From a virus (lineage: Duplodnaviria > Caudoviricetes), in IMG/VR virus record IMGVR_UViG_3300045935_000034, positions 1 to 59,478 of that record: a stretch of DNA of 59,478 bases; one strand, 5' to 3'. Position 1 is the first letter of the stretch. Every line of letters begins with the position of its first letter. The notes under the pieces were generated by a model. It saw nothing but the letters and a program-made list of their open reading frames with translations. It was not told where the DNA came from and ran no database searches. This document shows positions 1,743 to 54,542 of the stretch, piece by piece. The position numbers and the translations under genes were made by a program.

Positions 1743-1775
1743 CGCCAGCGCTACGTCACTGGCCGGCACAGGGCC
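1743..1775 (+). repeat. 33-bp direct repeat copy A (core CGTCACTGGCCGGCAC)
   Basis: CGCCAGCGCTACGTCACTGGCCGGCACAGGGCC; one mismatch to 2537-2569. Confidence 0.95.
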
Positions 1776-1921
1776 GACCGGGCAGGCGCCGCGCGAGCAC
1801 CGGGCCACCCGCCCGGCTGGGAGCGCCATGGGCGGCTTCGCCCTACTGCGCTCGTGCACGCGTATCGCCTCGCGGCGACCTCGCCCGGGTCGACGTCCCA
1901 CCCGCCGCAGAACGACCGCAC

Positions 1922-1957
1922 AAAAAAAGGCTGAGCGCGTATCGCGCTCAGCCTTTT
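1922..1957. terminator. Bidirectional intrinsic terminator
   Basis: A7-GGCTGAGCGCG-TAT-CGCGCTCAGCC-T4 between convergent genes. Confidence 0.9.
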
Positions 1958-1972
1958 CGTGTCGGTCTAGCT

Positions 1973-2377
1973 TCAGGCGTTGGCCTGCGCGTCCTCGGCG
2001 TAGAAGTCGCGGATGCCCTGAAGGCGCGAAAGGCGCTCGTTCATCGTGTCGACAAGCACGGTGTCACCCCGGCGGCTCGCACGCCACCTGCGGTCACGCG
2101 TGATCTTGATCAGCTTCGCGCACTCGATGGCGTCGGCGGGCACGTCGTCGCTGTCGGTCGACAGTTTCGCGACGGGCTTCGGCGCGGCCTTCGTCGACTT
2201 GCTCGACTTCGCAGCGGGCTTCGCAGCGGGCTTGGCGGGCGTAGCTTTCGCGGCGGGCTTCGCGGCGGGCTTGCTCGGCTTCGCTGCGGCCTTCGGCGCT
2301 GCGGTCGGCGCTGACTTCGCGTCGCGGCGTGCAGCGGCCCGAGCGGCTTTTTCAGTCTCGGTCAGGCGAACAGTCAT
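1973..2377 (-). CDS. Lys/Ala/Pro-rich histone H1-like protein
   Basis: KPAAK/PAAK repeats; GGGAG RBS; own promoter and terminator. Confidence 0.75.
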   Translation of the reverse strand: MTVRLTETEKAARAAARRDAKSAPTAAPKAAAKPSKPAAKPAAKATPAKPAAKPAAKSSKSTKAAPKPVAKLSTDSDDVPADAIECAKLIKITRDRRWRASRRGDTVLVDTMNERLSRLQGIRDFYAEDAQANA

Positions 2378-2451
2378 GGCGTGCTCCCTAGCTCGGCGTC
2401 ACTCGTCGCGCCCTACGCGACTCGCTGACGCTGTCTCTCTCGTGCTTCTCC

Positions 2452-2481
2452 AAGCTACGGCCGCACTCCGGGCCCTCGCAA
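2452..2481 (-). promoter_or_regulatory. Sigma70/HrdB-like promoter for the leftward gene
   Basis: TTGCGA-18 nt-TAGCTT on the minus strand, CGGCCG just upstream of the -10. Confidence 0.55.
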
Positions 2482-2536
2482 CTCTCTATCCACAATGGAC
2501 TCGGTGTCCCCGGATACACAGGCGCAGAGTCACGAC

Positions 2537-2569
2537 CGCCAGCGCTACGTGACTGGCCGGCACAGGGCC
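2537..2569 (+). repeat. 33-bp direct repeat copy B
   Basis: CGCCAGCGCTACGTGACTGGCCGGCACAGGGCC. Confidence 0.95.
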
Positions 2570-2624
2570 TACGTTCCGCGGCGAGCCGTGAACTTCCGCT
2601 ATATATAAGAGAAACAGGTGTGAT

Positions 2625-7166: not shown

Positions 7167-8117
7167 ATGAAAATCAAAACGTGCGCCGCGCAGATCAAGG
7201 CCGCAGGTCCCCATGAGGGCACAGAAGACGGACAGTTTGACGCGATCGTGGCGACCTACGATTTGGACTCTGTCGGCGATATGATCATGCCCGGCGCGTT
7301 CGCCGAGACCCTCGCGGAGTGGTCAGCGTCAGGCGACCCCATCCCGGTCTACTGGTCGCACCGCATGGACGACCCTGCGATGTGCATCGGCAGCGTGCTC
7401 AACGCTCAGGAAACCGAGCAGGGCTTGAAAGTCACCGCACAGCTCGACTTGGATAACCCGACAGCCGTGCAGGTGTACAAGCTCCTCAAGGGCCGCCGGG
7501 TGACGCAATTCAGTTTCGCCTACGACGTCGAAGAAGGCGCGTACGTCGAGAAGGCAGACGAGCGTTCCTATTACGAGCTGCGGAAACTCAAGCTCTACGA
7601 AGTCGGACCGACGCCGATCGGCGCGAATCAGCACACCGAACTGATCGACGTGAAGTCTGGGCTTACCGTCGAAGTGCACAGCGCAGACCGCGCCGCAGCA
7701 GCCGCGTTCGCGAAGTCGATCCGCAGCGCGCTCGCCGAACTCCCGGATACCGCTGTGGGAAACAACTCCACTGCGCCCGACGCCAAGCCCGCCGAGCAGC
7801 CCGGCGTGGCCGGCACAGGGCCCACCCCAGATTTTCAGGCCAAGGACGGCCGGAGAAACAGCAAAGCGGATGCGTCGAGCGTGCAGACGATCCACGATGC
7901 GGCAACAAATCTCGGCGCCGAATGCGAGCCCAGTGAAGAAGAGGTCACCGAGCCCGCCGACGACACCGAGGAAGACGCAGGAAAGGCCACGCTCGACACG
8001 CACGCCACGACCGAGGAGCCCGACGGGGCCAAGGCCGATGTGCCAGCGCAGGAAAGCCCCGCCTCATTCCGTCTACGCGCAGAGCTGACCTCGTCCGAGG
8101 TCGAGTTCGTTTCGTAA
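7167..8117 (+). CDS. HK97 prohead protease with acidic C-terminal extension
   Basis: DSVGDMIMPGAF, WSH, FSFAY, LYEVGPTPIGAN; GAAAGGA RBS before ATG 7167. Confidence 0.92.
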   Translation: MKIKTCAAQIKAAGPHEGTEDGQFDAIVATYDLDSVGDMIMPGAFAETLAEWSASGDPIPVYWSHRMDDPAMCIGSVLNAQETEQGLKVTAQLDLDNPTAVQVYKLLKGRRVTQFSFAYDVEEGAYVEKADERSYYELRKLKLYEVGPTPIGANQHTELIDVKSGLTVEVHSADRAAAAAFAKSIRSALAELPDTAVGNNSTAPDAKPAEQPGVAGTGPTPDFQAKDGRRNSKADASSVQTIHDAATNLGAECEPSEEEVTEPADDTEEDAGKATLDTHATTEEPDGAKADVPAQESPASFRLRAELTSSEVEFVS

Positions 8118-11133: not shown

Positions 11134-11528
11134 TGCCTGCGCCACTGCTGCGATTCGCTGACGTCGAAGCCGCACTAGTCGGGGCGCTGGGCAATGTGAG
11201 CGGCGTGCGACGCGTCGTCACGCTGCTGCCCGCAGCGCTCGTCGGCGTACTCCCTTTGCTGAGGGTGCAACGGTTCGGCGGCCACGACAACCGAGTAACC
11301 GACACCGCGAACGTCGACATTGAGACCCTGGCCGGCACGTACGGTCAGGCAAGCGCGCTCGCGAACCTCGTGCATACGACAGTGCTCGCGCTCGCTCACA
11401 CACCGTTACAGGGAACCATGTTCGACACAGTCGAGACTATCTCGCATCCGATATGGGTCGACTATGAGAACCCGAATGTGTCGCGTTTTGTTGCGACATA
11501 CGAGATAGCGGCCCGCGTGCTCGCCTGA
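11133..11528 (+). CDS. Tail terminator
   Basis: VQRFGG..D...RFVATY; synteny. Confidence 0.82.
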   Translation: MPAPLLRFADVEAALVGALGNVSGVRRVVTLLPAALVGVLPLLRVQRFGGHDNRVTDTANVDIETLAGTYGQASALANLVHTTVLALAHTPLQGTMFDTVETISHPIWVDYENPNVSRFVATYEIAARVLA

Positions 11529-13091: not shown

Positions 13092-16000
13092 GTGGCCTCA
13101 GTCGGCGTGCTGACACTCGACATCATGCCGAGTGTTAAGGATTTCAGCGGCGATATCCAGTCGCAGATCATCGGCCCCGCAACTCAGGCGGGAGTGCGCG
13201 CCGGAGAAGGCATCTCCTCCGGCATCCTCAGGGGTGCCACAGAAGGCTCAACCGGCGCGGGTCGCGCTATCACTTCGTCGATTACCGAGTCGGGCACACG
13301 GGCCGGTTCCGAAGCTGGGAAGGTTCTTCAGACTCAGCTCGGCGCGGCAGGTGCCCGTGCTGGTCGTGAAGCCGGTACGGGTATCACTGAAGGCGTGGTG
13401 TCGGCCACGTCCCGCGCGGGCAGCGACGCTGGGCGCACACTGTCATCCAGCGTCGCGAGCGGAGGCAGGACCGGCGGGAAAGAAGCTGGGGACGCTATCG
13501 GCAGCGCGGTCGGCGACGGCGCGAAAGAGGGTGGCTCCCGAGCGAAAACCCATCTGGCTGACGGAATCCACGAAGGAGCCAAGCAGGGGACCGCGCGGTC
13601 CAAAGAGTCGATGATGTCCGGGTTCGAGGGAATCGCCAAGGGCATGGCTGCGATGTGGGCAGGCAGCAAGGCGTTCGATTTCTTCAGTGAGTCCGTGCAG
13701 GCTGCGAAGGACTACAACTCGACGAACCGGACCGTTCAAGCGACATTGCAGAATGTCGGCGCTGGCGCAGGGGTCACGACCGAGTCCTTCAAGAAACTTT
13801 CCGAAGCCAACGCCGATCTCTCGGGCGCGGGCGACACCGCACAGCTCAGTATGCAGCAAACGTTGCTGGGCTTCACAAACATCAAGAACTCCGCCTCCGA
13901 CAAAATCTTCGACAAGACCGCGCTCGCGGTCAACGACCTGTCAGCCGGCATGGGAATCGAGCTGCCCCAAGCGGCGACGACCCTCGGCAAGGCGATGGAC
14001 AACCCAGCGCAGGCGGCAACTTCGCTGCGTAAAGCGCACATCGACTTGTCGGCCGCGCAGCAGCAGTCCATTAAGGACATGGTCAAGAACGGTGACACCG
14101 CTGGGGCTCAGAAGGTAATCCTTCAGGCTGTGGAGGACCGGTACAACGGGGTGGCCGCTGCGTCAGCCACGACCGGCGCGCGCAACTCCGTTGCCATGGA
14201 GCGGATGAAGACCGACGTCGGCGAGAAGCTCTTGCCTGCCATGGGCAAGTGGACCAAGTTCATGCAGAGCGAGGTTATCCCGAAACTTACTGCGGTGATT
14301 GGGTTCCTCGGTGATCACGCGACTGAGGTCGGCACGTTGATCGGGGTCCTCGGCGGGCTCTATGTGGCGTACAAAGTGTATACCGCCGGTGTCGCGATCA
14401 TGACCGGTATTCAGACAATCTGCACCACCGTCACGGAACTGCAGGAAAAAGGCTTCGGCAAGCTGAATAGCACAATGAGAGCTAACGTCATCGTGACTAT
14501 TGTGCTGCTGATCGCTGCGCTGATTCTCGCGCTGATCTACGCGTACAATCATTGCGAGACATTCCGGAATATTGTGGACAAAGTCTGGGATGTCATCAAA
14601 AAGGTCGGCGCATTTATTGGCGACATTTTCGTGGCTATCTGGAACGCTCTCGTTGACGCGTTTCATAAAGTTGTTGAGGCGGGAAAGACTGTCGGCGAGA
14701 AGCTGTCCGGCGTCATGCACGTCATCGCGGACGCGGCCTCGTGGATGTGGGACAACGTTCTCAAGCCCGTGTGGGACAAGCTCGTTGCCGCGTTCGATTG
14801 GGTTGTCGGCGCAGCAACCGATTTCGGCAAGGGCGTGGCGAAGGGTTTCAATGTCATCAAAGACGCGGCCGTGTGGTGGTGGGACCACGTACTGCATCCG
14901 ATCTTCGATGCCTACGCTATCGCCGTCGCGGTCCTGATTGCCATCGTGTGGGTCGTGTTCGTCAAGCCGATGATCTGGCTCTTCAAGGATGTACTCGCGC
15001 CGGTATTCGTGTGGCTGTGGGAGCACGTGATCAAGCCCGTTTTCGACAAGATCGGCGACATTTTTAACTGGATCTGGAACGCGATTATTTTCATTGTCGT
15101 CGGCCTGATCAAAAAAGAAATCGAGATCCTGTTCGGCGTATTCAACTTCCTGTGGGAGAACGTCGTAAAGCCGGTGTTCAATAAGATCGGCGACATTTTT
15201 AACTGGATCTGGAACGCGATTATCTTTGTCGTCGTGGGTCTGATTAAGAAAGAAATTCAGATTCTATGCGACATCTTTAACTGGCTCTGGGATAATGTCG
15301 TCAGGCCGGTATTCAGCAAGATCGGCGATATCTTCACCTGGATTCATGACACGATTATCAGGCCAATCGTTGACAAGATAAAAGAATCTATCGACGGCTG
15401 GGGCAAGATTTTCCACTGGTTGTACGACAATGTAATCAAGCCTGTTTTTGACAAGATCGGCGAAGCGGCTAACTGGTTCTGGGACCACGTCATTCACCCG
15501 GTGTTCGACTTCATCAGCGGAAAGGTGCACGACGTCGGTCAAGCCTTCAGCGACATGGGCGACACGATCGGCGGCATCTGGGACGGGCTCAAGAAAATGG
15601 TGCACGACGGCATCCAGGCCGTCGTGAACTTGGTGTGGAACAACGGTTTGCGGCCCGTGGTCAATGCCGTACTGAAGTGGATCCCGGGCATGGACGAGCT
15701 GCCCCGCTTCGATGTCCCGCAGTTCGCGGGCGGCGGCGTGCTGTCCGGATATGCCCCCGGGCGCGACACCGTGCACGCACTGCTCTCGCCCGGCGAGGCA
15801 GTGCTCGTGCCCGAGCTGGTCCGCATGATCGGGCCCGCCGCAATTCTCGCAGCCAACGCCGACGCAGCACGTCACCGTTACCACGGTGGCGGGCTCGTCG
15901 GTCACTTCGCTGACGGCGGGATCGTCAGTGGCGCAACAGGTCCCGCCGCGAACGCATCGGGTGCACCGATGGCCGGCACAGCCGCCGGATCGGCGGCCGA

Positions 16001-35920: not shown

Positions 35921-36225
35921 GGCGACGCCACCTCCGCGCTGACGTCGGTCTCATACTGCGCGAGCTTGTCGCGGAACTCCCACGCGCGGTAGGCGACCTC
36001 AGTCGACAACCACGTCTCCATGGCAATGCTCGTCGCTTGCTCCAGCTTCCATGCCATCAGCACGGTCAACGCGCTGCGCCCGTTGATCAGCTCGCTCAGG
36101 CGACTTTCGCTGACACTCGCCTTCTGCGCGAAACCCTTCTGGTCCACGCCGAGCGTGTCGATCCACTTGCGCAGCAACTCCGCTGGTGACAACGGCTTCG
36201 GGTTCGCGTACCGCTCCTCGGTCAT
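35917..36225 (-). CDS. higA: HigA-family antitoxin-like HTH protein
   Basis: SPAELL..Q..FA....S..RLSELING...LT...A.KLE.......WL. Confidence 0.8.
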   Translation of the reverse strand: MTEERYANPKPLSPAELLRKWIDTLGVDQKGFAQKASVSESRLSELINGRSALTVLMAWKLEQATSIAMETWLSTEVAYRAWEFRDKLAQYETDVSAEVASP

Positions 36226-39678: not shown

Positions 39679-40064
39679 GGGGCGACACTCTGGAACGTCC
39701 CTGGCGAGCCCGGCGAGCGCCACGTCTGGGTCTGGCCGTTTTTGTTCCAGCCCAAGGGGTCGGACTCCAGCTCGCCGTCGAACATCGCGGCGGCGATGAT
39801 CGTCGCGGTGAACGTGTCCGGGGTCGTTCCCGCGTAGCACCAATACCGGTCATAGATGTACGGGACATCGACCGGGGTCGTGGTGATCCTGTAGTTGTGC
39901 ATCATCCGCTGGACATCGACGAAATGATGTTCAGTGCGCACGATCCGCCAGCCACCGTCGACAGGCTCGACGAGCAGCGCTCCCGGCCCGACGAGAGGCG
40001 TCAGGAACTCGCGCAGGACTGCTATGTCAGCATGTCGGCTGAGCGCGTCTCCGTTCGTGGTCAC
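39675..40064 (-). CDS. Hypothetical protein
   Basis: DRYWCY..P.GWNK. Confidence 0.7.
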   Translation of the reverse strand: MTTNGDALSRHADIAVLREFLTPLVGPGALLVEPVDGGWRIVRTEHHFVDVQRMMHNYRITTTPVDVPYIYDRYWCYAGTTPDTFTATIIAAAMFDGELESDPLGWNKNGQTQTWRSPGSPGTFQSVAP

Positions 40065-40393
40065 AGTATCTCCCGGGGTTCGATGGCAGCGGCGATAGCG
40101 CGCAGCGTCTTGGCGTGTGCAGTGAGTTCGCTGGGCAGCACTGCGGGCGGGACGGGCTCCCACGCCGCAGTGCCGGTCAAGAGCCACGCGGGGTCTGCGT
40201 TAAGAAACTCGGCGACTTTCACGACCTGCTCGGCCGACATGCGCTGACGCCCGCCCTCAATGTTGGTGATGCTCGCGCGTTGCAGGCTCAGCATGTGGCC
40301 GAGCTGTGCCTGAGTCAGCGACGCAGAGAATCGCGCCAGCGTGACCCGCTTACCGAAGTCGGTCCAGTACGCGGAATTGACCTGGGCGACCAT
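40061..40393 (-). CDS. XRE-family HTH regulator
   Basis: FGKRV..R....LTQAQLG...RASITNIEGGRQ..WLLTG. Confidence 0.88.
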   Translation of the reverse strand: MVAQVNSAYWTDFGKRVTLARFSASLTQAQLGHMLSLQRASITNIEGGRQRMSAEQVVKVAEFLNADPAWLLTGTAAWEPVPPAVLPSELTAHAKTLRAIAAAIEPREIL

Positions 40394-41002
40394 TTACCTG
40401 TTCCCGTCGTCGACGGGCATGTACTGCGCGAGCCTGACCACGAACTGCTCAGCCCCCGCCTTGTCGAGCCGCATGGTCTCGATCAGGCAGCTCCGCAGAC
40501 CCATGTCCAGGTTGACTGCCGCGAGAACGGACATGACATCGACGGCGTGCCGACGCAGAGCTTCCGGGGTCAGCTCACCGACCCTCTGATCATGCAACCG
40601 CATCAGCAGCATCGGCACGAAATGCCCCGCGAATGGGTGCGCCCCAACGGCTCGGCCAATGGCCGGCACGAAGGCTACCGGGCGCGTGGCCGCGTCTTCG
40701 ACGTTTCCCCGGTACGGCCGCATGTCTCCGGTGACAACCTTGTACGCGTCGTCATCGCTCATTTCGAGACGCTCGGTCAGCATCCGCATGATGGCCGTCG
40801 AGTGGTCGGCCTCGGTCGCTCGCGCTATCGCAGCACTGGCATACGCGAGGGCCTGACTGCGCCGCAGCGGGAAACTCTCGTCCGGGCCGACGAACACGAC
40901 CACCCCGTACGCCCCGTTGTGCGAGATATCGGACTCGACCCGCAAGGTGTAGCGCTCCAACTGCGCGTCGTCCTGCTCGTCCTGCTCGTCCTGCGTGGTC
41001 AT
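40394..41002 (-). CDS. Hypothetical protein
   Basis: AGGA RBS, ATGA coupling. Confidence 0.7.
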   Translation of the reverse strand: MTTQDEQDEQDDAQLERYTLRVESDISHNGAYGVVVFVGPDESFPLRRSQALAYASAAIARATEADHSTAIMRMLTERLEMSDDDAYKVVTGDMRPYRGNVEDAATRPVAFVPAIGRAVGAHPFAGHFVPMLLMRLHDQRVGELTPEALRRHAVDVMSVLAAVNLDMGLRSCLIETMRLDKAGAEQFVVRLAQYMPVDDGNR

Positions 41003-42093: not shown

Positions 42094-43746
42094 TTACTGC
42101 GAAGTGACAACCGGCAGTGCCCCTGGCGGGGTCAGCTGGACGCGCAGGTCGAAGCCCTTGAGTCGCGTCATGCCCGCAGGTCGTTGCACGTCGCGAGAGG
42201 GGATGATGGTGACTGTCATCAGTGACTGCACGATGGCGCGCCTGTATTCAATGTCGGTGATCGTGTCGTATGCAGCGACCGGGTCAGCAGCGTCAGCAAC
42301 GCCGAGCAATGGTGATGTGGATGCAACGGTGCCGAGTTCGTAGTCCACCGCAGCGAGCTTGACTTTCAGTGGCTCGATTGCCCTCAGCATCTCCCTGAGT
42401 GCGATCAGCTCCTTGGCATACGCGTCGGCGCACTCGTCGATCAGTACACGTAGCTCAGTCGCACGTCGTCTCAGCCCGGCCACATCGACTTCTGGGTGAC
42501 TCTGTACCAGCTTCGCGCCCTGTTCGCGCAGAATCCGGCGCACTGCCTCGTTTACTACCCTGTCAGCGATATGCGTAGCTATGGACATGTGCGCACCCGC
42601 GCGGCATCGATACGTTCGATACGCGCCCTTGGGCGCCATGGACTTGCCTGTCATCATCAGGGCACCGCAGTTGCCGCAACGGTAGACACCGTTTCCGAGC
42701 TGTGGATTGTTGCCAGCTCTCGCGGTGATCCGCTCTGGGTCATTGAGCTTGGCCCGCAGTGCTCGCCACGTGTCTTCACTGATAATGGCGGGCCACTGTG
42801 CGGTGGTGAGTACTCGGTCAGACCCATCATTGACGAGGACGATTCCGGCATTGCGAGGGTTCAGCATGATGTTCCTGACAGACAGTCGGTGCCAGTGCCC
42901 GCGAATAATCGGTATGCCCCGGTCTGCGAACTCCCATACGACTTCGCGCGGCGACTGTATGTCACGTCCAGATGGGGGCGGTGCGTACATCCGTTCGACA
43001 GCCTCATAGATCAGCGCGGCCTCGTCGGGGCGTTCGTTGCTTGGCGTCTTGGCGACAAGCTCGGCGAGCATTGGCCTCGACCATGTGCACGGCGGGCAAT
43101 GCTCGTCCCATTTCGCAACGAGGCTTCGCAGGGACCTTCCGCTGAGCAGGTGCTCAGCGCCGTCCCTGATCCATCTTGCTTCGCGTTCACGTATCCGCAT
43201 TCCGTGGCGCTCATACCCGAACGCGCGTTGCCCTCCCATGAACTCGCCGGTCTTGCGTTTGCCGACCTTCGAGTCGATAACGCGCTCGGCGTCGCGCTCA
43301 GCCTCCGCAGCATCCCATGCTGCCAGCGTCCGGGCGACCGCGCGGCCATCTGCCGTGTTCAGGTTGAAACTGGGGCTCCGAATGAACCGGTACTCGATTG
43401 CCGCAGTCTCGGCGAGTTCAATCTGGTCCTCATGCTCACGCGGGCGGCGAGTGAGTCGCGCGCTGGTGTAGGCATAGATGATGCTGCCCGGGTCGCTGCG
43501 CGCGTCGCGCAAGAGGCGGTCATACTGCGGTCGCTTCTTTTTCGAGTGCTTCGATGCGCCGATGTCGTTGTCGCGATATGAGTCGACGATCACCAGCGTG
43601 GGGTCCTTTTCTATTACCGAGATCAGGCCGTTGTGCTGGAGTTCCACGCCGAGCTCGCGCCCCTCCCTGTCTCTGCTGATCCGCTCATACAAGCGAACGT
43701 GACGTGGCGTTGCGATCATTAACGGGTGCGGTGCGGCAGTGGTCAT
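42094..43746 (-). CDS. int: Large serine recombinase (phiRv1-type integrase); alternative start GTG 43758
   Basis: YERISRD..GV..Q, DNDIGAS..RPQY, RLTRRP, AFGY, NPRNAG, WPAII, CGNCG..YRC. Confidence 0.95.
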   Translation of the reverse strand: MTTAAPHPLMIATPRHVRLYERISRDREGRELGVELQHNGLISVIEKDPTLVIVDSYRDNDIGASKHSKKKRPQYDRLLRDARSDPGSIIYAYTSARLTRRPREHEDQIELAETAAIEYRFIRSPSFNLNTADGRAVARTLAAWDAAEAERDAERVIDSKVGKRKTGEFMGGQRAFGYERHGMRIREREARWIRDGAEHLLSGRSLRSLVAKWDEHCPPCTWSRPMLAELVAKTPSNERPDEAALIYEAVERMYAPPPSGRDIQSPREVVWEFADRGIPIIRGHWHRLSVRNIMLNPRNAGIVLVNDGSDRVLTTAQWPAIISEDTWRALRAKLNDPERITARAGNNPQLGNGVYRCGNCGALMMTGKSMAPKGAYRTYRCRAGAHMSIATHIADRVVNEAVRRILREQGAKLVQSHPEVDVAGLRRRATELRVLIDECADAYAKELIALREMLRAIEPLKVKLAAVDYELGTVASTSPLLGVADAADPVAAYDTITDIEYRRAIVQSLMTVTIIPSRDVQRPAGMTRLKGFDLRVQLTPPGALPVVTSQ

Positions 43747-44635: not shown

Positions 44636-44851
44636 GTGAGATTGACCCACGCGCAATACCGGATGTTGGTCGGATTAGGGCGTCAACGTGGCGGGAAGGC
44701 ACTCGTCGGTAACCTCTTATCGGCGTGCATCCTGGAACGACGCGGGCTCGTCGCCGTGGGCACGGCTGATCAATCTGGGCGTGCACCAGTGACACTGACC
44801 CCGCGCGGGCGTGTCCTTGCAGCCGGAGCGGGGGCCGCTCCGTGCAACTGA
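44636..44851 (+). CDS. Small winged-helix-like protein
   Basis: LERRGLV..LTPRGR. Confidence 0.6.
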   Translation: MRLTHAQYRMLVGLGRQRGGKALVGNLLSACILERRGLVAVGTADQSGRAPVTLTPRGRVLAAGAGAAPCN

Positions 44852-45486
44852 CAGGCGCACAGCGCGAGCATCGCGCCCAGAAAATAGCGGTCAAGATCAA
44901 GGCACGCATGACGGAGCTGTCGTTATCGCAGGCCGAGGTGGCGCGCCGTTGCAATATCAGTACGGCGACGTTCCGCAATAGGCTTCTCCGCTTCTCCTCA
45001 GCACAGCAGGACATCGTGTCACTGGCGCAATTGTCGCTCGCGATGGAGTGGCCGGTCGAATATCTCAGCAAGGTTCTCGACGGCACTTACGACCTCAGCG
45101 ACGATCCAGCGGCTTTGCCGGCCACACCGAGCCCCGCGCAAAAAACGTTGCCCCGTAAGCGGAAGGTCGTCGCCCCGCCACAAGAACGGCTCGCCGAGAG
45201 CGACCTCGATGCGCATATCAGCGCACTGGTAGCCGCCGCGCCCACGCTGACACCCGCACAGGCCGAGCGGATCAGGAACATTGTGCCCGCGCTGACGCCC
45301 GCGAAGGTCAGCAAGTTGGCTGTGAATGAACGCGCAGCGCCACCACTGGCAGAACGAGTAGCAGAGCTGGAAAGAGTGGTCGCGCGTCTCGCGCGGCACG
45401 AGCAGAGTCGCAACCTCCATCCGCCCCAGACCCCGGCGACCTCCACCAACGGGAACGGCGCTCATGAGCAGAGATATCGAGCCTGA
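44842..45486 (+). CDS. XRE-type HTH protein with a phiRv1 RDF-like motif
   Basis: LSQAEVARRCNIS HTH; ISALVAAAPTLTPAQAERIRNIV. Confidence 0.72.
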   Translation: MQLTGAQREHRAQKIAVKIKARMTELSLSQAEVARRCNISTATFRNRLLRFSSAQQDIVSLAQLSLAMEWPVEYLSKVLDGTYDLSDDPAALPATPSPAQKTLPRKRKVVAPPQERLAESDLDAHISALVAAAPTLTPAQAERIRNIVPALTPAKVSKLAVNERAAPPLAERVAELERVVARLARHEQSRNLHPPQTPATSTNGNGAHEQRYRA

Positions 45487-46450: not shown

Positions 46451-46804
46451 CTAGCGTGTCGCTGGGGGCTCGTTCACTCCACGCACGCGCTCGACTCTGC
46501 GGGGGCTCGTCGCCGTGCGCGTGAACCTCGTGGGAGCCCCTGGCGCGACAGGCTCATGAATCGTGATACCGAAGCTCTCTGCGACGGCGGCAACGATCAC
46601 GCTCGGCGGGACGTCGAGCGCAGCAGCGAGCGCGAACAAAGTCTCTGGGAACGGGAACGCTCGCATCGGCTTGTGCACGAGCTTGCTGAGCGCCGCTTTG
46701 GTGAGGAACACGTACCCGGCGTCGTGTGCGCGCTTGAGCAAGTCCGGGTAGCTCAACCCCTGCTCATGCTGCGCTTTCAATATCAGGCCGCTCAGATCGG
46801 TCAC
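46451..46804 (-). CDS. Probable immunity repressor (HTH)
   Basis: HTH-like; divergent from the Cro-like gene; GGAGGG RBS. Confidence 0.72.
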   Translation of the reverse strand: MTDLSGLILKAQHEQGLSYPDLLKRAHDAGYVFLTKAALSKLVHKPMRAFPFPETLFALAAALDVPPSVIVAAVAESFGITIHEPVAPGAPTRFTRTATSPRRVERVRGVNEPPATR

Positions 46805-47520: not shown

Positions 47521-47772
47521 ATGGGAGATCGTCCTACGCACGCCCAGATCATCCGCCCCCGTGTCGTCGAGTTCCCCCTGTGGGTGGCGTGGCGCACCGG
47601 GTACGGACTGCTGCGGGCGCGCACCGAAATGCTGGTCTTTGCCGCGCTGTGGTTGAACTTTTTCGATAGCCGACCCGTGCCGGCCAACCGTGAGCTGATC
47701 GCACTGCGGCTCGGTCTCACCCTGCTGACTGTGGTGTTCGTTGTGACCGCGCTCGGCCTGCTGCTCTCCTGA
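47521..47772 (+). CDS. Membrane protein
   Basis: C-terminal TM helix; AAGGGA RBS. Confidence 0.6.
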   Translation: MGDRPTHAQIIRPRVVEFPLWVAWRTGYGLLRARTEMLVFAALWLNFFDSRPVPANRELIALRLGLTLLTVVFVVTALGLLLS

Positions 47773-48903: not shown

Positions 48904-49169
48904 TTGCCTCAGATATGGAAGCGCTCGCGCGTATTGCCGAGGCGCACGTGAAATGGGTCCAGCACGACGGTTCGACGAGCGGGGACTGTGCCGAGTGCAT
49001 CCGGCTGTGGCCGTGCCCGACCTACGTGTGGGCGACAGACGACCGCGACTCGATGGCGTGCTGGGACCCCATCGACGACGAGGACGACGAGGACGACGAG
49101 GACGCACCGCTGTGCGACTGCCCGCCTGATGATCGGCGCCTGCACTCGACGCACGGTGATCGAGAGTGA
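48900..49169 (+). CDS. Hypothetical protein (H..C.EC..WPCPT)
   Basis: Actinophage-type motif; coupled. Confidence 0.65.
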   Translation: MIASDMEALARIAEAHVKWVQHDGSTSGDCAECIRLWPCPTYVWATDDRDSMACWDPIDDEDDEDDEDAPLCDCPPDDRRLHSTHGDRE

Positions 49170-49852
49170 CTCGGCCACGCCTGCTCGACCTGTACTGCGG
49201 CGTGGGCGGCGCGGGCGTCGGCTACTGGCTCGCCGGGTTCGACGTCGTCGGAGTCGATCACAACCCACAACCGCGCAACCCCTTGCCGTTCGAGTGCGCC
49301 GACGCGCTGGAGTACGTGCTCGACCACGGCGCGGAGTTCGACGCCATTCACGCCAGCCCGCCGTGTCAGTCGCACTGCGCGGTGACCAAGGGCAACCGTG
49401 CACGTGGCTGGCTCGACGAGCACGCCGGGTATCTGGGCGCGACACGAGCCGCGCTCGACGGGCTCGACGTGCCCTACGTCCTGGAGAACGTGCCCGGCGC
49501 GCCGATGCGGCGTGACCTGGTGCTGTGCGGGGAGATGTTCGGGCTCAACGTGATCCGGCATCGCTGGTTCGAGCTGGGCGGCTGGACAGCGAGCGCACCG
49601 GAGCACCTGGCGCACCGCGGTCGAGTCGCGGGCTTCCGCCACGGTGATTGGTTCCTGGGCAACTACTTCGCCATCTACGGCATGGGCGGCGGCAAGGGCA
49701 CCGTGGCGCAGTGGCAGGGCGCGATGGGCATCACCTGGACCAGGGACCGGCGTGAAATCGCAGAGGCGCTGCCCCCGGCCTACACCCAGCATCTCGGCAC
49801 GCAGCTCGCCGCGCACGTCACGACGAGCGGCAGGGGTCTCGTATGTCGATGA
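49166..49852 (+). CDS. Compact DNA cytosine-C5 methyltransferase
   Basis: LDLYCGVGG (motif I), ASPPCQ (IV), LENV (VI), RHRWFE. Confidence 0.9.
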   Translation: MTRPRLLDLYCGVGGAGVGYWLAGFDVVGVDHNPQPRNPLPFECADALEYVLDHGAEFDAIHASPPCQSHCAVTKGNRARGWLDEHAGYLGATRAALDGLDVPYVLENVPGAPMRRDLVLCGEMFGLNVIRHRWFELGGWTASAPEHLAHRGRVAGFRHGDWFLGNYFAIYGMGGGKGTVAQWQGAMGITWTRDRREIAEALPPAYTQHLGTQLAAHVTTSGRGLVCR

Positions 49853-50121: not shown

Positions 50122-50181
50122 GGAATTCCCCATGCGAAAATTTCCCCCGCAGGCTGTGCCGGCCATCGGTCCCGGTGTCGG

Positions 50182-51216
50182 GTGAGTGCCCCGGTGCTCG
50201 ACGTCGACTCGTTCGACCCGCCACAGACAGACGTCCCGCGCGACAAGTGGAAACGGCCGCTGATCACGCCCGTGGGCGGCGGCAAGCCGGTCGCCTACAC
50301 GCGGTGCACGACCTATGTCGGCTGCCTCGAAGACATGTACAACATCAGCCTATGGCAGCAACGCATGGTCGCTCTCGGCCTCGCTGCGCGCCCTGACCTC
50401 CTGCTCTCCGTCGCGGTCGCCGACCGTGAGGACAAGAAGGCGCTCGACGCACTCGCCGACGCGGCAGCCGAGGCAGCGGGCGCACACGCGGCGGCGACGA
50501 CCGGGACGGCGTTGCACCGTCTCACCGAACGCTATGACCGGGGCGAGCTGGGGGAGTCGGACGTCTCGTTCATCCCGCCCGCCTACCGGGGCGACCTCGC
50601 CGCGTACATCGAACGCACGACGGGCATGGACATGCCGGTGATCGAACAATTCTCGGTGTGCGACGACCTCAGGGTAGGTGGCACCCCGGACCGGATTGTG
50701 GTGATCGACGGGCGCGGCTACATCGCAGACCTGAAGACGGGCTCGCTCGACTGGGGCGCGGCGAAGATGGCCATGCAGCTCGCGGTCTACGCGCACAGCA
50801 AGCCGTATGATCACCGCACAGGCGAGCGTGCCGAGTGGCCGGTGCAGGTCGACACCGAGCGCGGCATCATCATCCATCTCCCGGCGGGCACCGGACTGTG
50901 CTCGCTGCTCTGGCTCGATATCGCCACCGGCTGGGAGGGCGTCTCGCTCGCCGGGGATGTCCGGGCGTGGCGCAAGCGCAGGAACTTCCTCGATAAGTGG
51001 CCCGCCCCAACAGGTCCCGGGGAATCGGTCCCCTTGCCGGCCACAGCGCCGACCGATCTCGGCTCGCTCACGACGGCGCTTGCCGCGCTGCGGGCCACAT
51101 CCACGCTCGTCGAGCTGCGCGGGGTCTATGACCTGCTGATCGTCGCCGGGTACAAGAAAGACGACCTGCTCGCGACCTGCATTGCACGCAAGAGCGAGCT
51201 GGGTGCGTCGCTGTGA
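50182..51216 (+). CDS. PD-(D/E)XK exonuclease (RecE/Cas4-like)
   Basis: GTALH..E, GGTPDR, ADLKTG, QLAVYA. Confidence 0.9.
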   Translation: MSAPVLDVDSFDPPQTDVPRDKWKRPLITPVGGGKPVAYTRCTTYVGCLEDMYNISLWQQRMVALGLAARPDLLLSVAVADREDKKALDALADAAAEAAGAHAAATTGTALHRLTERYDRGELGESDVSFIPPAYRGDLAAYIERTTGMDMPVIEQFSVCDDLRVGGTPDRIVVIDGRGYIADLKTGSLDWGAAKMAMQLAVYAHSKPYDHRTGERAEWPVQVDTERGIIIHLPAGTGLCSLLWLDIATGWEGVSLAGDVRAWRKRRNFLDKWPAPTGPGESVPLPATAPTDLGSLTTALAALRATSTLVELRGVYDLLIVAGYKKDDLLATCIARKSELGASL

Positions 51217-51890: not shown

Positions 51891-52153
51891 TGCACCACGG
51901 CGTGCCGGACACCCTGATCTCTCAATGCCGCATGGGATTCGCGGTCTATCTGCTCGGCCTGCGCGTGGTGCTGATCGACATTCTCGCCGCGCACTCAGTG
52001 CTGACGTGGCTGCTCGTGCCGGTCGACATTGCTCTGATCGTGCTGCTGACCACCTGGCGCACAGCGCACCGCGAGCAGATCGAGCCCAGCCAGCCAGCCG
52101 AGACCTTACCAGCCACAAGCCCATCACCGTCTACAAAGGAGACAGCAGCATGA
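51890..52153 (+). CDS. Membrane protein
   Basis: Two hydrophobic helices. Confidence 0.6.
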   Translation: MHHGVPDTLISQCRMGFAVYLLGLRVVLIDILAAHSVLTWLLVPVDIALIVLLTTWRTAHREQIEPSQPAETLPATSPSPSTKETAA

Positions 52154-52503
52154 GGCGAAAACCACGCCCGAAGCTACAGCCCGGCGAGAACGATTACGCG
52201 GGCGTGTGCACGCTCGTCCCCGGAGGGAAGGGCCCCGTCTGCGGACAGCCCGCCACAGTGCACCTGCTCGTTGCCGGGCCCGGCGCGACCGGCTGGCTGG
52301 CACTGCCGTCGTGCGCCGAGCATGTCGACATCGGGCGACGCTGCGACGTGCTCGACGAGCACGTACATCAGGGCATGTGCGGGATGCCCTCGACGAAATG
52401 GGACACGCCCAGCAAGTCGTGCGTCCTCAACGGACTCGACAGCGAGCCCGACCGGACCGGGCACAAGCTCGTGGCGCGTGACGGCGAGCTGGTGAGCGCG
52501 TGA
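52150..52503 (+). CDS. Cys/His-rich hypothetical protein
   Basis: AAGGAG RBS. Confidence 0.65.
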   Translation: MRRKPRPKLQPGENDYAGVCTLVPGGKGPVCGQPATVHLLVAGPGATGWLALPSCAEHVDIGRRCDVLDEHVHQGMCGMPSTKWDTPSKSCVLNGLDSEPDRTGHKLVARDGELVSA

Positions 52504-52850
52504 GCCCAGCAGCGCGCAAGAACTCCGGGCGCAGATCAACTGCGCAGCGCAGGCCCACGCTGACCTACCCGTCACGCAAGGCCGCGCCCGTCAAGCGGAA
52601 GCCGTGCCCGGCGAAGTGCGGGGCGTATGTCGACGAGTTCACCGAGGCACACGGGCGCACAGTGTGGCTCGACGCGACCCCGCCGAGCGTGGACATCGAC
52701 CTTATGACCGTCGTCGAGCGGCTATATGAGTACCACGGCCCGAACGTCGGCTGGTGCTCGAAGACGCTCCCCATCCGTGGATGGCGCGAGCTGCGCCTGA
52801 TCCATGTCTGCCGCTTTCCTGCTGTATCAACGAAAAGGGGCAACTCATGA
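52500..52850 (+). CDS. Hypothetical protein
   Basis: CPAKCG..LD..H.C; coupled. Confidence 0.65.
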   Translation: MSPAARKNSGRRSTAQRRPTLTYPSRKAAPVKRKPCPAKCGAYVDEFTEAHGRTVWLDATPPSVDIDLMTVVERLYEYHGPNVGWCSKTLPIRGWRELRLIHVCRFPAVSTKRGNS

Positions 52851-53236
52851 CCGACATGTTCGACAACCCAGGTGAACTGACCGGACTGACGTGGGAGAAC
52901 TACGTGGGGCGGCTGATGTTGCTCACTCCCACGGAGAAGGTCACCGGCATCTCGACGACGGTTGGCACGAAGGACGCCATCCGCGCCGACATTGTCGTGC
53001 TCGACGGGCCGAACTCGCCGGAGCAGTTCCGCGACGCGCTCGTGTTCCCGCTCGTGCTTCAGGGCCAGTTGCGGACCAACGTCGCCACCGGGCGCACCGT
53101 GCTCGGGCGGCTGGGTCAGGGCGACAAAAAACCCGGTCAGAACGCGCCGTGGAAGCTCGCTGACCCGACCGAGGCAGACAAGTCCATCGCGCGCGCCCAT
53201 CTCGGGCGCTCGACGAGCAACGAGGCCCCGTTCTGA
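52847..53236 (+). CDS. Probable single-stranded DNA-binding protein (actinophage type)
   Basis: ADIVVLDG..LGRLGQG..GQNAPWKL; ends EAPF; near the exonuclease. Confidence 0.65.
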   Translation: MTDMFDNPGELTGLTWENYVGRLMLLTPTEKVTGISTTVGTKDAIRADIVVLDGPNSPEQFRDALVFPLVLQGQLRTNVATGRTVLGRLGQGDKKPGQNAPWKLADPTEADKSIARAHLGRSTSNEAPF

Positions 53237-53754
53237 TGGGCTACCCCACATACAAAGACGGCCCCACATACAAGGACGGCAGCCCGTTCGACGGCGGACC
53301 GGTCGCCACCCCCGGCCCGGACGCGGCCCCGGCGTGGTCCGGTCCGGCCCGGCTCTTCATTCTGCGGCGCGACGTCGACACCACCGGCGTGTCGGGAACC
53401 GGTGACGTCGCGGACGGCACCGAGTACCCGAACGGGTCCGTGTCGCTGTGCTGGCGCGGCCCGGCGTCGAGTGTGGCGGTGTGGTCCTGCATGGCCGACA
53501 TGCTGGCCGTACACGGGCACGGCGGCGACACGCGCGCGGTGTTCGGAGACGAGGAAGGCACTATCTGGCGACAGGGTCGAAAGGTCCCGCATCACGTCTA
53601 TGCGCAGAACGGCATCGGGCCGGACGACAGGCCATGGCCGGACGGGGATCGGCCAATCGCCACGTTCCTTAACCCGATCGACGCGCAGACAGCCACGTAC
53701 GCGATGAACACGATGTTGCTGTGGCAACGGCGGACCGGGGCATACAACCGCTAG
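53236..53754 (+). CDS. Phage hypothetical protein
   Basis: LRRDVD.TGVSGTG.VA.G..HGHGG.T. Confidence 0.72.
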   Translation: MGYPTYKDGPTYKDGSPFDGGPVATPGPDAAPAWSGPARLFILRRDVDTTGVSGTGDVADGTEYPNGSVSLCWRGPASSVAVWSCMADMLAVHGHGGDTRAVFGDEEGTIWRQGRKVPHHVYAQNGIGPDDRPWPDGDRPIATFLNPIDAQTATYAMNTMLLWQRRTGAYNR

Positions 53755-53846
53755 CACCACCGGCGAGCCGGTCCCGCGTGGACCGGCTCGCCGAGCTTGA
53801 CGCCTGGACCGTTACGCCTTGACCCGCCAAGCCCCTTGGAGTCGCC

Positions 53847-54542
53847 ATGCGCACCTACACGACTTGTCCCGGCTGTGGTGAGCCGATACTCCACGCGGGG
53901 CGGCGCGGCACCGTGCACGCTGGGTGTGTCGACCCTGCACAGTGGATAGACGATCTGGAGGAGGCGTTTCTTTCCGCGGTGACCGAGGAGCGCGACGAGG
54001 ACGCCGTCGCGCTGGGCCGCGCGCTCGACAACGCCGAGGGCTCCCCGCCGCGCTATCTTGCCGCCGCGCTCGCCTACGCCGCGTGGGGCTGGCCGGTGCA
54101 CCCGCTTTTCCCTGGTAGCAAAGTGCCGGCCACGGGTCACGGGTTCCGTGATGCCACAACGAGTCCCGAGGTCATCACGGCGTGGTGGGCGAAAACACCG
54201 AACGCGAACATCGGCTTGGCGACCGGGCACGCGTTCGACGTGCTCGACATCGACATGTACGTGCCGGGGACCGGACTTCGCTGGGCTGACCTGCGTGAGT
54301 CTGACGCGCTGCCCACCACGCACGGGATCGTGTCGACCGCGAGGGGTGGCCTGCACGTGTACCTGCTGCCCACGCTCGACGTCGGCAATCAGGTCGCCAC
54401 GGTGCCGGGCATCGACTGGCGCGGGCGCGGCGGCTACGTCGTCGCCCCGCCGTCGCGGCTCGACGACACCGCCGTCTGGACGTGGTCGATACGGCCGAGT
54501 CCCTACATCACCACCCAGCAAGGACGGGAACCGACGCCATGA
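53847..54542 (+). CDS. Bifunctional DNA primase/polymerase domain protein
   Basis: ALAYA..GWPV.PL, HGF.DATT, NIGLATG, VLDID, T.RGG.H.Y, GIDWRG.GGYVVAPPS. Confidence 0.93.
   Translation: MRTYTTCPGCGEPILHAGRRGTVHAGCVDPAQWIDDLEEAFLSAVTEERDEDAVALGRALDNAEGSPPRYLAAALAYAAWGWPVHPLFPGSKVPATGHGFRDATTSPEVITAWWAKTPNANIGLATGHAFDVLDIDMYVPGTGLRWADLRESDALPTTHGIVSTARGGLHVYLLPTLDVGNQVATVPGIDWRGRGGYVVAPPSRLDDTAVWTWSIRPSPYITTQQGREPTP

Follow-up and report, generated by a model that had tools for sequence, protein, structure and literature searches.

The window analysed here, all 59,478 nucleotides of IMG/VR record IMGVR_UViG_3300045935_000034, holds the late genes of a phage, two leftward gene cassettes, a serine integrase and a replication module in which a Prim-Pol gene is followed by an AAA_25 helicase gene; many homologues of this pair are fused Prim-Pol+AAA_25 proteins (Table 1). 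Directly after the helicase stop codon lies an iteron cluster that contains 6 of the genome's 18 GGTTCCC copies within 193 bp together with a 23-nt inverted repeat. On the strength of its iterons and its position this cluster (56004-56213) is likely the replication origin, although GC skew at third codon positions provides no independent support for the direction of the forks. The phage also encodes an exonuclease (phrog_466), RusA and, besides a small C5 cytosine methyltransferase, a Mom family protein; a ParB-like gene is present as well and is counted among the candidate binders. G+C content is 57-70% in 2-kb segments, mostly 63-68%, slightly under the 68% assumed in the original prediction for this DNA. 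Dispersed among these features are the copies of a short asymmetric word, TGGCCGGCA, most of which extend to the 10-mer TGGCCGGCAC.

Table 1. Copies of the word and associated features of the phage genome (feature, position in the window, strand, remarks)
Exact 10-mer	1760..1769	+	Intergenic; core of extended repeat A
Exact 10-mer	2554..2563	+	Intergenic; core of extended repeat B; ~37 bp before TATATATAAG box upstream of terS
Exact 10-mer	7807..7816	+	Late gene, sense, VAGT
Exact 10-mer	11329..11338	+	Late gene, sense, LAGT
Exact 10-mer	15970..15979	+	1617-aa putative tape-measure ORF (assigned by length alone), sense, MAGT
Exact 10-mer	18692..18701	+	Late gene, sense, LAGT
9-mer, position 10 = T	20552..20561	+	Sense, WPAL via rare codons GCA and TTG
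Exact 10-mer	21519..21528	+	Late gene, sense, MAGT
9-mer, position 10 = T	22977..22986	+	Sense, WPAL via rare codons
9-mer, position 10 = T	27218..27227	+	Intergenic
9-mer, position 10 = A	29965..29974	+	Sense, VAGN
Exact 10-mer	30314..30323	+	Intergenic; core of extended repeat C, past last late gene
Exact 10-mer	33091..33100	+	Intergenic; core of extended repeat D
Exact 10-mer	37670..37679	+	Antisense, 3' end of phosphoesterase ORF (VPAT)
Exact 10-mer	37703..37712	+	Antisense, phosphoesterase ORF (VPAT); 33 bp from 37670 copy
Exact 10-mer	40660..40669	+	Antisense in minus-strand gene (VPAI); last plus copy before flip
9-mer, position 10 = A	45115..45124	-	Antisense in HTH gene 44842-45486 (LPAT, rare TTG); first minus copy
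Exact 10-mer	47677..47686	-	Antisense in plus-strand gene (VPAN)
Exact 10-mer	50156..50165	-	Between called genes; also in possible 17-codon mini-ORF (VPAI) before exonuclease gene
9-mer, position 10 = A	51034..51043	-	Antisense in exonuclease gene (LPAT, rare TTG)
Exact 10-mer	54123..54132	-	Antisense in Prim-Pol gene (VPAT); last minus copy, 1.9 kb left of iterons
9-mer, position 10 = G	58061..58070	+	9 bp before ATG of MerR/excisionase-like HTH gene 58079-58408; 1.85 kb right of iterons
Extended repeat A	1723..1782	+	Left border, leftward cassette 1; repeat families D7, D8, D18
Extended repeat B	2517..2573	+	Right border, leftward cassette 1
Extended repeat C	30277..30336	+	Left border, leftward cassette 2
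Extended repeat D	33054..33113	+	Right border, leftward cassette 2
Iteron cluster and 23-nt inverted repeat	56004..56213		Likely origin; divergence point of copies
Prim-Pol (53847-54542) and AAA_25 helicase (54539-56008)	53847..56008	+	Candidate readers of the word, beside iterons
Serine integrase	42094..43647	-	att region beside integrase, within convergence interval
Small C5 cytosine methyltransferase	49166..49852	+	phrog_363; LYCGVGG, SPPCQ and ENV read as conserved motifs
XRE-type HTH genes	35917..36225; 40061..40393		Candidate binders
Repressor-like gene	46451..46804		Candidate binder
HTH gene	44842..45486		Candidate binder
MerR-like gene	58079..58408		Candidate binder
phrog_1568 gene	57363..58028		Candidate binder
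Zinc ribbon gene	1558..1737		Candidate binder

The commonest 10-mer of the phage genome is TGGCCGGCAC, with 15 copies (12 plus, 3 minus) against 0.44 expected from 100 dinucleotide shuffles, none of which reached 15 and the richest of which held 3; Markov models of orders 1-5 place the expectation at 0.2-0.44, in agreement with the earlier estimate of less than one copy. The strict core is the 9-mer TGGCCGGCA, of which there are 22 copies (17 plus, 5 minus) against 1.3 expected under an order-3 Markov model, a 17-fold enrichment. Variation is confined to position 10, mostly C, and a purine follows at position 11. Eleven variants differ from the word at positions 1-9, about the chance level (10.2 by shuffling, all matches with at most one mismatch); they are unpolarised, as only 5 of them obey the polarity rule described below. 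Polarity is absent from sub-words outside the TGGCCGGCA motif, and no other 7-9-mer with at least 10 copies joins enrichment with polarity. All 15 exact copies listed in the original prediction lie where it placed them and on the strands it gave, and an exact, repeated count over the whole window found no TGGCCGGCAC in the opposite orientation. The three 9-mer variants that it named are likewise present (45115 and 51034 on the minus strand, 58061 on the plus), although its list was incomplete, missing four plus-strand copies (20552, 22977, 27218 and 29965). The observation is confirmed, and it is stronger than was stated.

Called genes contain 10 copies of the 10-mer (of 15) and 15 of the 9-mer (of 22). 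Two codon-aware nulls were run, following the check that had been proposed. Synonymous-codon shuffling yielded 1.36 +/- 1.08 ten-mers (maximum 6 in 300) and 2.38 nine-mers, and codon permutation 0.48 and 1.4, respectively, so that the enrichment of both words persists under either null. The encoded peptides are informative in the same respect. Within the late genes, the exact 10-mer encodes all five [LMV]AGT peptides, while the one remaining VAGT of the proteome, in a right-arm gene, is without it; outside the late genes, it lies in five of five VPA[TIN] peptides. Codon usage alone would give the 10-mer with a probability of 0.06-0.16 per such peptide. Because these peptides carry the exact 10-mer, and because four copies of the word use the rare codons TTG (10%) or GCA (14%), selection on the word acts at the level of DNA and not of protein. 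A dispersed repeat element of the MITE or REP type was rejected, as flanks are shared by only 4 of the 22 copies, those in extended repeats A-D.

The arrangement of the 22 sites is as distinctive as their number. They are spaced more evenly than by chance (largest gap 5253 bp, P = 0.0013; CV 0.54, P = 0.0017), and the five minus copies form a single block on the circle (P = 0.0008). Every one of them points away from the iteron cluster (binomial P = 4.8e-7), and both landmarks used to define this polarity were located independently of the word: the integrase spans 42.1-43.6 kb, the iterons 56.0-56.2 kb. The copies form two arms that meet in the integrase/att region (41-45 kb; interval 40.7-45.1 kb). 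Orientation flips once within 40.67-45.1 kb and again within 54.13-58.06 kb, the latter interval containing the iteron cluster, which bears out the predicted reversals near the integrase and the putative origin. Equally well founded was the view that orientation does not simply follow transcription: coding copies are sense in 8 of 8 late-gene cases and antisense in 7 of 7 cases in all other genes, the copies within the minus-strand gene block (30.6-43.6 kb) are plus, and those within the plus-strand block (44-56 kb) are minus. Since gene blocks carry copies against their own strand while a codon-driven contrast word, CGCGCTCGAC, does track gene direction, transcription does not account for the orientation of the word. 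The best explanation is that TGGCCGGCA represents a selected, strand-specific DNA signal of an uncultured soil actinophage, arranged by replication rather than by genes.

Whether such a signal belongs to the phage or to its host bears directly on what may read it. Word density is 252 per Mb in the phage. A search of relatives and candidate hosts, as had been suggested, found no enrichment in the nearest relatives; in a family-level sample (151 genomes from the family of one Pseudonocardia species) density was at most ~48 per Mb, in a class-level sample (301 genomes of that species' class) the maximum was ~47 per Mb, and in four further genomes from candidate lineages it ranged from 2 to 32 per Mb. 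No sampled actinomycete genome (452 + 4) therefore exceeds about one-fifth of the phage density, and many members of the family from which the host probably comes avoid it, one 8.2-Mb genome having 3 copies versus 74 control hits. Because these densities are so far below that of the phage, the factor reading the word is probably phage-encoded, and a host-wide Chi or KOPS is unsupported. KOPS are chromosome-wide host words read by FtsK, and architecture-imparting sequences (AIMS) of bacterial chromosomes were reportedly described by Hendrickson et al. in 2018. Like both, the present word is polar and lies on the strand leading from origin toward terminus or recombination site, its two arms converging on the integrase and att; unlike them, it is specific to one phage. 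Moreover, it would flip inside an integrated prophage and is therefore unfit for host segregation, and a host-wide word read by a host translocase is not supported by the sampled densities. Of the predicted polar site pointing away from the origin, the geometry stands (22/22), and the suggested likenesses are in part weakened: the word lacks defining features of Cluster A stoperators, and the sampled densities give no support to a Chi or KOPS shared with the host. It may be a protein-binding site on duplex DNA, as predicted, or a signal read on one strand.

Our preferred reading, at a probability of roughly 0.5, is that replication sets the orientation of the signal and that a factor encoded by the phage reads it. 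More tentatively, the word may be a priming or re-priming site for the phage's own Prim-Pol/helicase replisome. Each copy lies on the strand running 5'->3' away from the likely iteron-type origin, the lagging-strand template for forks leaving it; in this model the replisome would read the word on single-stranded DNA, and selection would keep one copy per 2-5 kb on that template, even within genes and despite the GCCGGC that each copy carries. With the iterons as the inferred origin and forks meeting at att, 22 of 22 copies are on the lagging-strand template, and the Prim-Pol and helicase genes adjoin the iterons. Phage and plasmid Prim-Pols require specific template words, 5'-TTTGGTTA-3' and 5'-GTG-3' for NrS-1 and GTG for pRN1 ORF904, and begin the primer immediately 5' of them (PMC8718748); a word carried by the template of the lagging strand is in keeping with this. 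The likeness extends to the presence of the word on that template in both arms and to a Prim-Pol gene beside the origin. However, known primase words are flexible and of 3-8 nt, whereas this one is strict and of 9-11 nt, and the GTG of both characterised Prim-Pols is absent from its relevant strand and present on the complementary one. No genome-wide, polar and evenly spaced arrangement of Prim-Pol words is reported in the portions of the literature drawn on here. Further points weigh against priming. A purine-initiating primase might require a pyrimidine at the base 5' of the word, for which there is no preference (7/15); four copies are embedded in longer cassette-border repeats that priming leaves unaccounted for; and on a symmetric, bidirectional circle forks would meet near 26 kb rather than at 41-45 kb, leaving 7 of 22 copies wrong-stranded, so that the model needs unequal forks or in situ replication of an integrated prophage.

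An unlikely alternative is that the word acts as a Chi-like signal, at which a helicase-nuclease that processes DNA ends (AdnAB/RecBCD of the host, or an enzyme of the phage) would switch from degradation to recombination at broken forks or free ends. In E. coli, Chi is oriented on the strand running away from the origin, as is the word here, and known Chi words are 5-8 nt, shorter than its 9-11 nt. The placement of copies at the borders of two gene cassettes is what might be expected of a recombination hotspot, and no strand-annealing protein was detected among the phage proteins scanned, but the phage does have its own exonuclease and RusA. The signature resembles that of Chi-rich phages (E. 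coli LLS and P1, Pseudomonas phage MD8; Zheng et al. 2025, PMC12315714), namely a commonest k-mer in ~20 copies with a strong strand bias that does not derive from codon usage; in LLS, Chi is the commonest octamer and 20 of its 23 sites share one orientation. In those phages, however, the word is the host's own 8-nt, host-abundant Chi, unipolar and clustered at one end (PMC12315714), whereas here a single rule covers all 22 copies but is bipolar around the phage origin, with even spacing. A host Chi should also abound in the host chromosome; this reading is weakened by the sampled candidate-host genomes, none of which approaches the phage density and many of which, in the likely host family, avoid the word. 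Finally, the phage word, unlike Chi of these phages, contains a restriction-type palindrome purged elsewhere.

It is less likely still that a protein of phage or host binds the word on duplex DNA and acts there as a one-way block or as a mark of genome architecture; such a site would resemble a stoperator but would face replication forks or antisense, rather than sense, transcription. The word is asymmetric and, at 9-11 bp, spans roughly one turn of the helix, candidate binders are many (Table 1), four copies bracket the two leftward cassettes, and 7 of the 22 copies are intergenic versus a genome that is 13% non-coding. Against this, 15 of 22 are within genes, the main regulatory gaps (43.65-44.2, 44.63-44.84, 46.8-47.15 and 33.8-34.1 kb) contain no copy, the sense-then-antisense pattern is not tied to transcription, and degenerate copies, which a transcription factor would usually have, are wholly absent. 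Cluster A stoperators (L5 gp71; the TipsytheTRex repressor) likewise belong to actinophages and are comparable in number, L5 having >20 asymmetric 13-mers genome-wide, but they sit in promoters and short intergenic gaps and follow transcription (PMC9283540), whereas the phage word is mostly intragenic and follows the origin/att axis. Membership of that class was rejected on both placement and orientation, and the HTH proteins found with Pfam and PHROGs profiles are XRE- or MerR-type only, no stoperator-domain repressor being among the matches. The Streptomyces AdpA box TGGCSNGWWY is also a 10-bp asymmetric site whose TGGCS core matches the first five bases of the word (TGGCC), with 9 of 10 positions fitting; AdpA binding is, however, loose (PMC3372375), whereas the phage word is strict and breaks the consensus at position 8, and the AdpA consensus is not enriched (9 seen versus 8.6 expected).

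The palindrome at the core of the word invites a further comparison. GCCGGC is purged from the genome (24 seen versus ~70 expected), 22 of the 24 survivors being inside the word and only 2 outside; so are many other 6-bp palindromes, among them CTCGAG (0 of ~30), GCATGC (1 of ~26) and CAGCTG (2 of ~38). A type II restriction/modification target was rejected, since avoidance applies to the palindromic core, the complete word being asymmetric and enriched. A modification or anti-restriction mark, in which the copies are the only affordable GCCGGC sites, modified by the C5 methyltransferase or a Mom-like enzyme and perhaps read as 'self', is very improbable. Both enzymes are encoded, the methyltransferase being a possible modifier of the GC-rich word, and on one strand an A follows each of the 24 sites. 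Yet protection would account for tolerance, not for enrichment, even spacing and strict polarity, and 22 of the 24 sites have the same flanking T and G, so they do not represent a random remnant of the GCCGGCA class.

Least probable is that cassettes are inserted or exchanged at sites built around the word, or that it is a relic of their capture, with the other copies as secondary sites: repeats A/B (~33 nt, one mismatch) and C/D (~46 nt) do bracket the two leftward cassettes and all four share GCCAGC-N4-CGTSAC plus the word, but the other 18 copies have no sequence in common beyond the word, intragenic copies must stem from point changes, polarity around the origin is not predicted, the 26-nt border pattern finds no relative (5 unrelated metagenome matches with 1-2 9-mers each, 0 in viral contigs) and, more weakly, a cassette-less form was not seen in the contigs of the sole run with the phage. 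Each leftward cassette has its own promoter-like boxes and a bidirectional terminator-like hairpin.

The 10-mer TGGCCGGCAC, referred to here as the polar word, occurs 15 times in the window (12 plus-strand and 3 minus-strand copies), exactly at the places and on the strands given in the original prediction, and is the commonest 10-mer of the phage genome. The accompanying estimate that less than one copy should occur by chance also holds, the expectation being 0.44 under dinucleotide shuffles, none of 100 of which reaches 15, and 0.2-0.44 under Markov models of orders 1-5. When one mismatch is allowed, position 10 alone proves to be free: seven extra copies, four of them previously overlooked, differ at that base only (T, A or G), and every one follows the polarity rule described below. 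Mismatches at positions 1-9 yield 11 variants, no more than chance would give, of which only 5 follow it. Consequently, the unit is the 9-mer TGGCCGGCA, the strict core, with 22 copies (17 plus, 5 minus) against 1.3 expected. C occupies position 10 in 15 of the 22, and all but one of the 15 exact copies have a purine at position 11. On a circle, the widest interval between neighbouring copies is 5,253 bp, compared with a mean widest interval of ~10,000 under random placement (P = 0.0013), and the coefficient of variation of their spacing is 0.54 (P = 0.0017).

Ten of the 15 ten-mers lie inside genes according to codon-usage gene calls, and the excess persists against codon-aware nulls: a protein-preserving shuffle of synonymous codons yields 1.36 +/- 1.08 ten-mers (largest count 6 in 300), and codon permutation predicts 0.48. 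Coding copies occupy two frames only, sense xTG-GCC-GGC-ACx and antisense GTG/TTG-CCG-GCC-Axx. The exact word underlies 5/5 [LMV]AGT peptides in the late genes and 5/5 VPA[TIN] peptides outside them, while codon usage alone predicts it in 6-16% per peptide, and four copies are written with a rare codon, either TTG (10% of Leu) or GCA (14% of Ala). These peptides seem to exist owing to the DNA word and not vice versa. Chance and codon artefact are therefore both rejected by the shuffles, the Markov and codon nulls, and the peptide and rare-codon counts. The second most skewed 10-mer, CGACCGGCGC (11 plus, 1 minus), is no kin of the polar word, as it derives from the collagen-like Gly-X-Y repeat gene at 24.6-25.7 kb.

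The record of 59,478 bases represents a whole virus, with completeness rated 100% and class linear, and 87% of it is coding by the codon-usage calls. The caller is a simple one and gene starts are approximate, although key genes are backed by Pfam and PHROGs.

Gene blocks and features of the phage genome
Feature	Coordinates	Strand	Remarks
Late genes	0.2-30.3 kb	+	Include ParB-like gene, Mom, terS
Leftward cassette 1	1973-2377	leftward	Embedded among late genes
terL	3124-4866	+	Putative, from position and size only
Portal	5150-7075	+	Reading based on database matches
Capsid	8140-9471	+	Reading based on database matches
Tape measure	13092-17945	+	Putative, from position and size only
Collagen-like Gly-X-Y repeat gene	24610-25668
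Mostly minus-strand block	30.6-43.6 kb	-
Leftward cassette 2	30668-32924	leftward
HTH gene	35917-36225		In mostly minus-strand block
Phosphoesterase	37623-38543		In mostly minus-strand block
XRE/CI-like repressor (HTH_19)	40061-40393	-
Lsr2	41361-41879		In mostly minus-strand block
Serine integrase	42094-43647		In mostly minus-strand block
Plus-strand block	44-59.5 kb	+	Also holds GmrSD_C/HNH-like gene, RusA
HTH gene	44842-45486	+
Small C5 cytosine methyltransferase	49166-49852	+	228 aa; LYCGVGG, SPPCQ, ENV read as conserved motifs
Exonuclease	50194-51216	+
Prim-Pol	53847-54542	+
AAA_25 helicase	54539-56008	+
MerR/excisionase-like HTH gene	58079-58408	+	phrog_1969, phrog_66, phrog_2474; overlooked by codon-usage caller
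HNH endonuclease	59113-59475	+

One polar-word copy ends 9 bp upstream of the ATG of the MerR/excisionase-like gene. A second repressor-like gene at 46451-46804 (minus strand, phrog_12831) is separate from the XRE/CI-like gene; a divergent control region is possible for both, and either may be the immunity switch. The portal and a WhiJ-like regulator have their nearest named homologues in Pseudonocardiaceae (45-64% identity), so the host probably belongs to that family.

The orientation of the copies divides the genome in two. Plus-strand copies run from 58.06 kb across the ends to 40.67 kb and minus-strand copies from 45.1 to 54.1 kb, which bears out the predicted flips near the integrase and near a putative origin and confines them to 40.7-45.1 and 54.1-58.1 kb. 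The former interval spans the serine integrase and both gaps able to hold attP. The latter contains a 257-bp gap 3' of the helicase stop, in which lie a 23-nt inverted repeat and GGTTCCC-type iterons in both orientations (56004-56213); of the 18 GGTTCCC copies in the genome, 6 fall within 193 bp here, together with GGTTCC variants. Judging from the iterons and their position beside the replication genes, which is typical of iteron origins, this cluster is likely the replication origin. All 22 copies point away from it (binomial P = 4.8e-7, the landmarks being defined independently), the nearest lying ~1.9 kb on either side. Among the 7-9-mers present 10 times or more in the window, none besides it combines enrichment with polarity, and sub-words outside the polar motif show no polarity. 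Transcription is not the organiser, as had been foreseen: a codon-driven word, CGCGCTCGAC, tracks gene direction (minus at 31-38 kb, plus at 46-57 kb), whereas the polar word opposes the genes in both of these regions and agrees with them in the late region only. A transcription-coupled orientation is thus rejected.

Given that 22/22 copies are directed outward, the word lies on the strand running 5'->3' away from the putative origin, that is, on the lagging-strand template. The two arms so defined are unequal, at about 12 kb and 47 kb, which fits forks that meet at att. Symmetric replication of a circle would leave 7/22 copies on the wrong strand, and in-situ replication of the prophage from its own origin, with att forming both ends, fits the arms exactly; such replication occurs in other phages. 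The third-codon-position GC skew of the coding strand is -0.137 in the late genes, -0.053 in the minus-strand genes at 30.6-43.7 kb and -0.058 at 44-56 kb, but +0.015 at 56-59.5 kb, where the fork model would expect about -0.14; this pattern is probably a gene-class effect.

Retention of the word appears costly. Its GCCGGC core is seen 24 times in the genome against ~70 expected (62-72 under three models), and in coding DNA 17 times against ~61 under both codon nulls. Twenty-two of the 24 sites are within the polar word and 2 are elsewhere, so that the density of 0.40 per kb in the phage drops to 0.03 per kb outside the word, compared with a median of 1.57 per kb in related prophage loci. That the phage pays to retain 22 such sites argues for a function of the word, and counts of the hexamer inside and outside the motif provide a gauge of its worth to the phage. 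Other palindromes are similarly depleted in the window, namely CTCGAG (0 vs ~30 expected), GCATGC (1 vs ~26), CAGCTG (2 vs ~38), GAGCTC (4 vs ~26), CTGCAG (7 vs ~26), GGCGCC (16 vs ~58), CCGCGG (21 vs ~60) and CTAG (21 vs ~53-190); GTCGAC and GTGCAC show no avoidance. We read this profile as restriction avoidance, and it may help to find the host. In the likely host family the 10-mer is strongly rarer than its reversed control in many genomes (for example 3 vs 74 and 5 vs 62), which suggests that GCCGGC avoidance is common there and fits a widespread pressure against the hexamer. Sampled genomes in which it is 5-25 times rarer than the control include G335, G384, G367, G435 and G393.

Comparison with relatives and candidate hosts, a check suggested in the prediction, returned no parallel of comparable density. 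Megablast of both genome halves against GenBank phages gives short 72-75% matches only, and capsid tblastn at most 46% identity. Close searches with the portal, in viral and genome contigs, and with the helicase were empty. The best portal identities are 72%, for a match on a 3.4-kb contig, and 63%, and the nearest helicase homologue, on a 2.5-kb contig, is 59% identical. The relative with the 63% portal, a 22-kb fragment, has no copy of the word, two further records have 5 and 1, and none of 83 related loci (L060-L142) has more than two ten-mers; the phage is a singleton in the collections searched. A 15-mer scan of viral contigs reached 59 loci, 53 with one copy, five with two and one, L030, with five; the last are spaced ~120 nt apart at 4769-5390 and are probably an unrelated tandem repeat inside a gene. 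Against 252 ten-mers per Mb in the phage, five genomes reached via related prophage loci (two Pseudonocardia, Amycolatopsis, Gordonia and Nocardiopsis) carry 2-32 per Mb, and the highest densities among genomes of the same class (301) and the same family (151) as one such Pseudonocardia species are ~47-48. These samples include 14 unpublished genomes (G270, G014, G043, G037, G050, G039, G031, G022, G437, G370, G395, G346, G312 and G431), none of which is an extreme and without which the negative stands. A host-wide Chi or KOPS word is thus unsupported in the genomes searched, which makes a phage-encoded reader more likely. We found no published description of the 10-mer; the listed titles of papers matching it or its complement concern neither phages nor bacterial DNA signals, and among the papers listed on polar words around phage origins or on stoperators none shows such an arrangement.

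Cells and some phages use polar, over-represented words to guide enzymes moving on DNA (Chi for RecBCD, KOPS for FtsK); we know of no such steering word in actinobacteria. The present word is specific to a single phage, is tied to that phage's putative origin and att site, and is retained despite containing a hexamer otherwise avoided. This provides a directly testable cis signal with the Prim-Pol/helicase, the exonuclease, a few HTH proteins and the C5 methyltransferase as candidate readers. We put at about 0.5 the probability that it is a replication-oriented signal with a phage factor as reader. Of the polar protein-binding site originally proposed, the polarity outward from the putative origin stands; a stoperator fails on placement and orientation, and a host-wide Chi or KOPS word is unsupported in the genomes searched.

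For the identity of the reader we tentatively prefer the Prim-Pol/helicase replisome, which would read the word strand-specifically as a site of priming or re-priming. Such a role would unite strictness and single-strand asymmetry with replication polarity, a phage-private reader and the requirement that sites be regularly spaced. The strict core looks more like an enzyme recognition word than a transcription-factor box, and the Prim-Pol gene shares its last 4 bases with the helicase gene, the homologues of the two often being fused in one protein. According to PMC8718748, the Prim-Pols of phage NrS-1 and plasmid pRN1 require template words (TTTGGTTA and GTG), with primers beginning just 5' of the word. 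Several points nevertheless speak against priming: GTG is absent from the relevant strand, the base 5' of the word is not preferentially a pyrimidine, the unequal arms must be explained, and the polar word is, to our knowledge, longer than any primase word. If the replisome is indeed the reader, this would be the first genome-scale evidence of a primase word shaping a phage genome. It is rather unlikely that lagging-strand fragments start only at the 9-nt word and that the genome is thereby punctuated every 2-5 kb on both arms; the word would then have been placed on the lagging-strand template, through genes and by means of rare codons, at the cost of keeping 22 restriction-type sites that are purged elsewhere.

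A Chi-like signal read by a nuclease would be the first of its type in actinobacteria, and the signature recalls Chi-rich phages such as LLS, for which PMC12315714 reports 23 Chi sites, 20 in one orientation, with Chi the commonest octamer. The negative result in the host genomes searched and the bipolar, even layout nonetheless render it unlikely. A duplex-binding roadblock is improbable; the placement and orientation of the word differ from those that define stoperators (PMC9283540). Candidate duplex binders are encoded at 198-692, 1558-1737, 35917-36225, 40061-40393, 44842-45486, 46451-46804, 57363-58028 and 58079-58408. The AdpA box is not enriched in the phage. That the word is a modification mark is very improbable. 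The small methyltransferase gives neither a Pfam hit at E<0.01 nor any sequence match among solved structures.

Least probable is a linker for cassette recombination, even though four of the copies are embedded in repeats of 33-47 nt, which have GCCAGC-N4-CGTSAC and the word in common and bracket both leftward cassettes (repeats A and B at 1723-1782 and 2517-2573, C and D at 30277-30336 and 33054-33113). The contigs of the single DNA run containing the phage, possibly the source sample, cover the window without differences; no RNA run is listed as containing it, and no joint deleting cassette 2 occurs in that contig-level run; a loose contig end at 33075 is read as the repeat A region aligned to repeat D at the 85% setting. 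As single-stranded DNA, repeats A-D have no common fold (z-scores 0.05, -0.64, -1.56 and -0.40), and their 26-nt border pattern has five unrelated metagenome matches and no viral one. Consensus scans for promoters and terminators around the cassettes gave no hits, the putative promoter-like and terminator-like boxes there being a reading by eye. Elsewhere, the 13-mer ATGCGAAAWTTTC has two exact copies, at 37648-37660 (minus) and 50132-50144 (plus), each 9-11 nt from the polar word and each at the beginning of a short ORF with the N-terminus MR(N/K)F. The ORF at 50132 terminates in GTGA, where it overlaps the start of the exonuclease gene, and with up to two mismatches the 13-mer has 3 matches against 0.63 expected.
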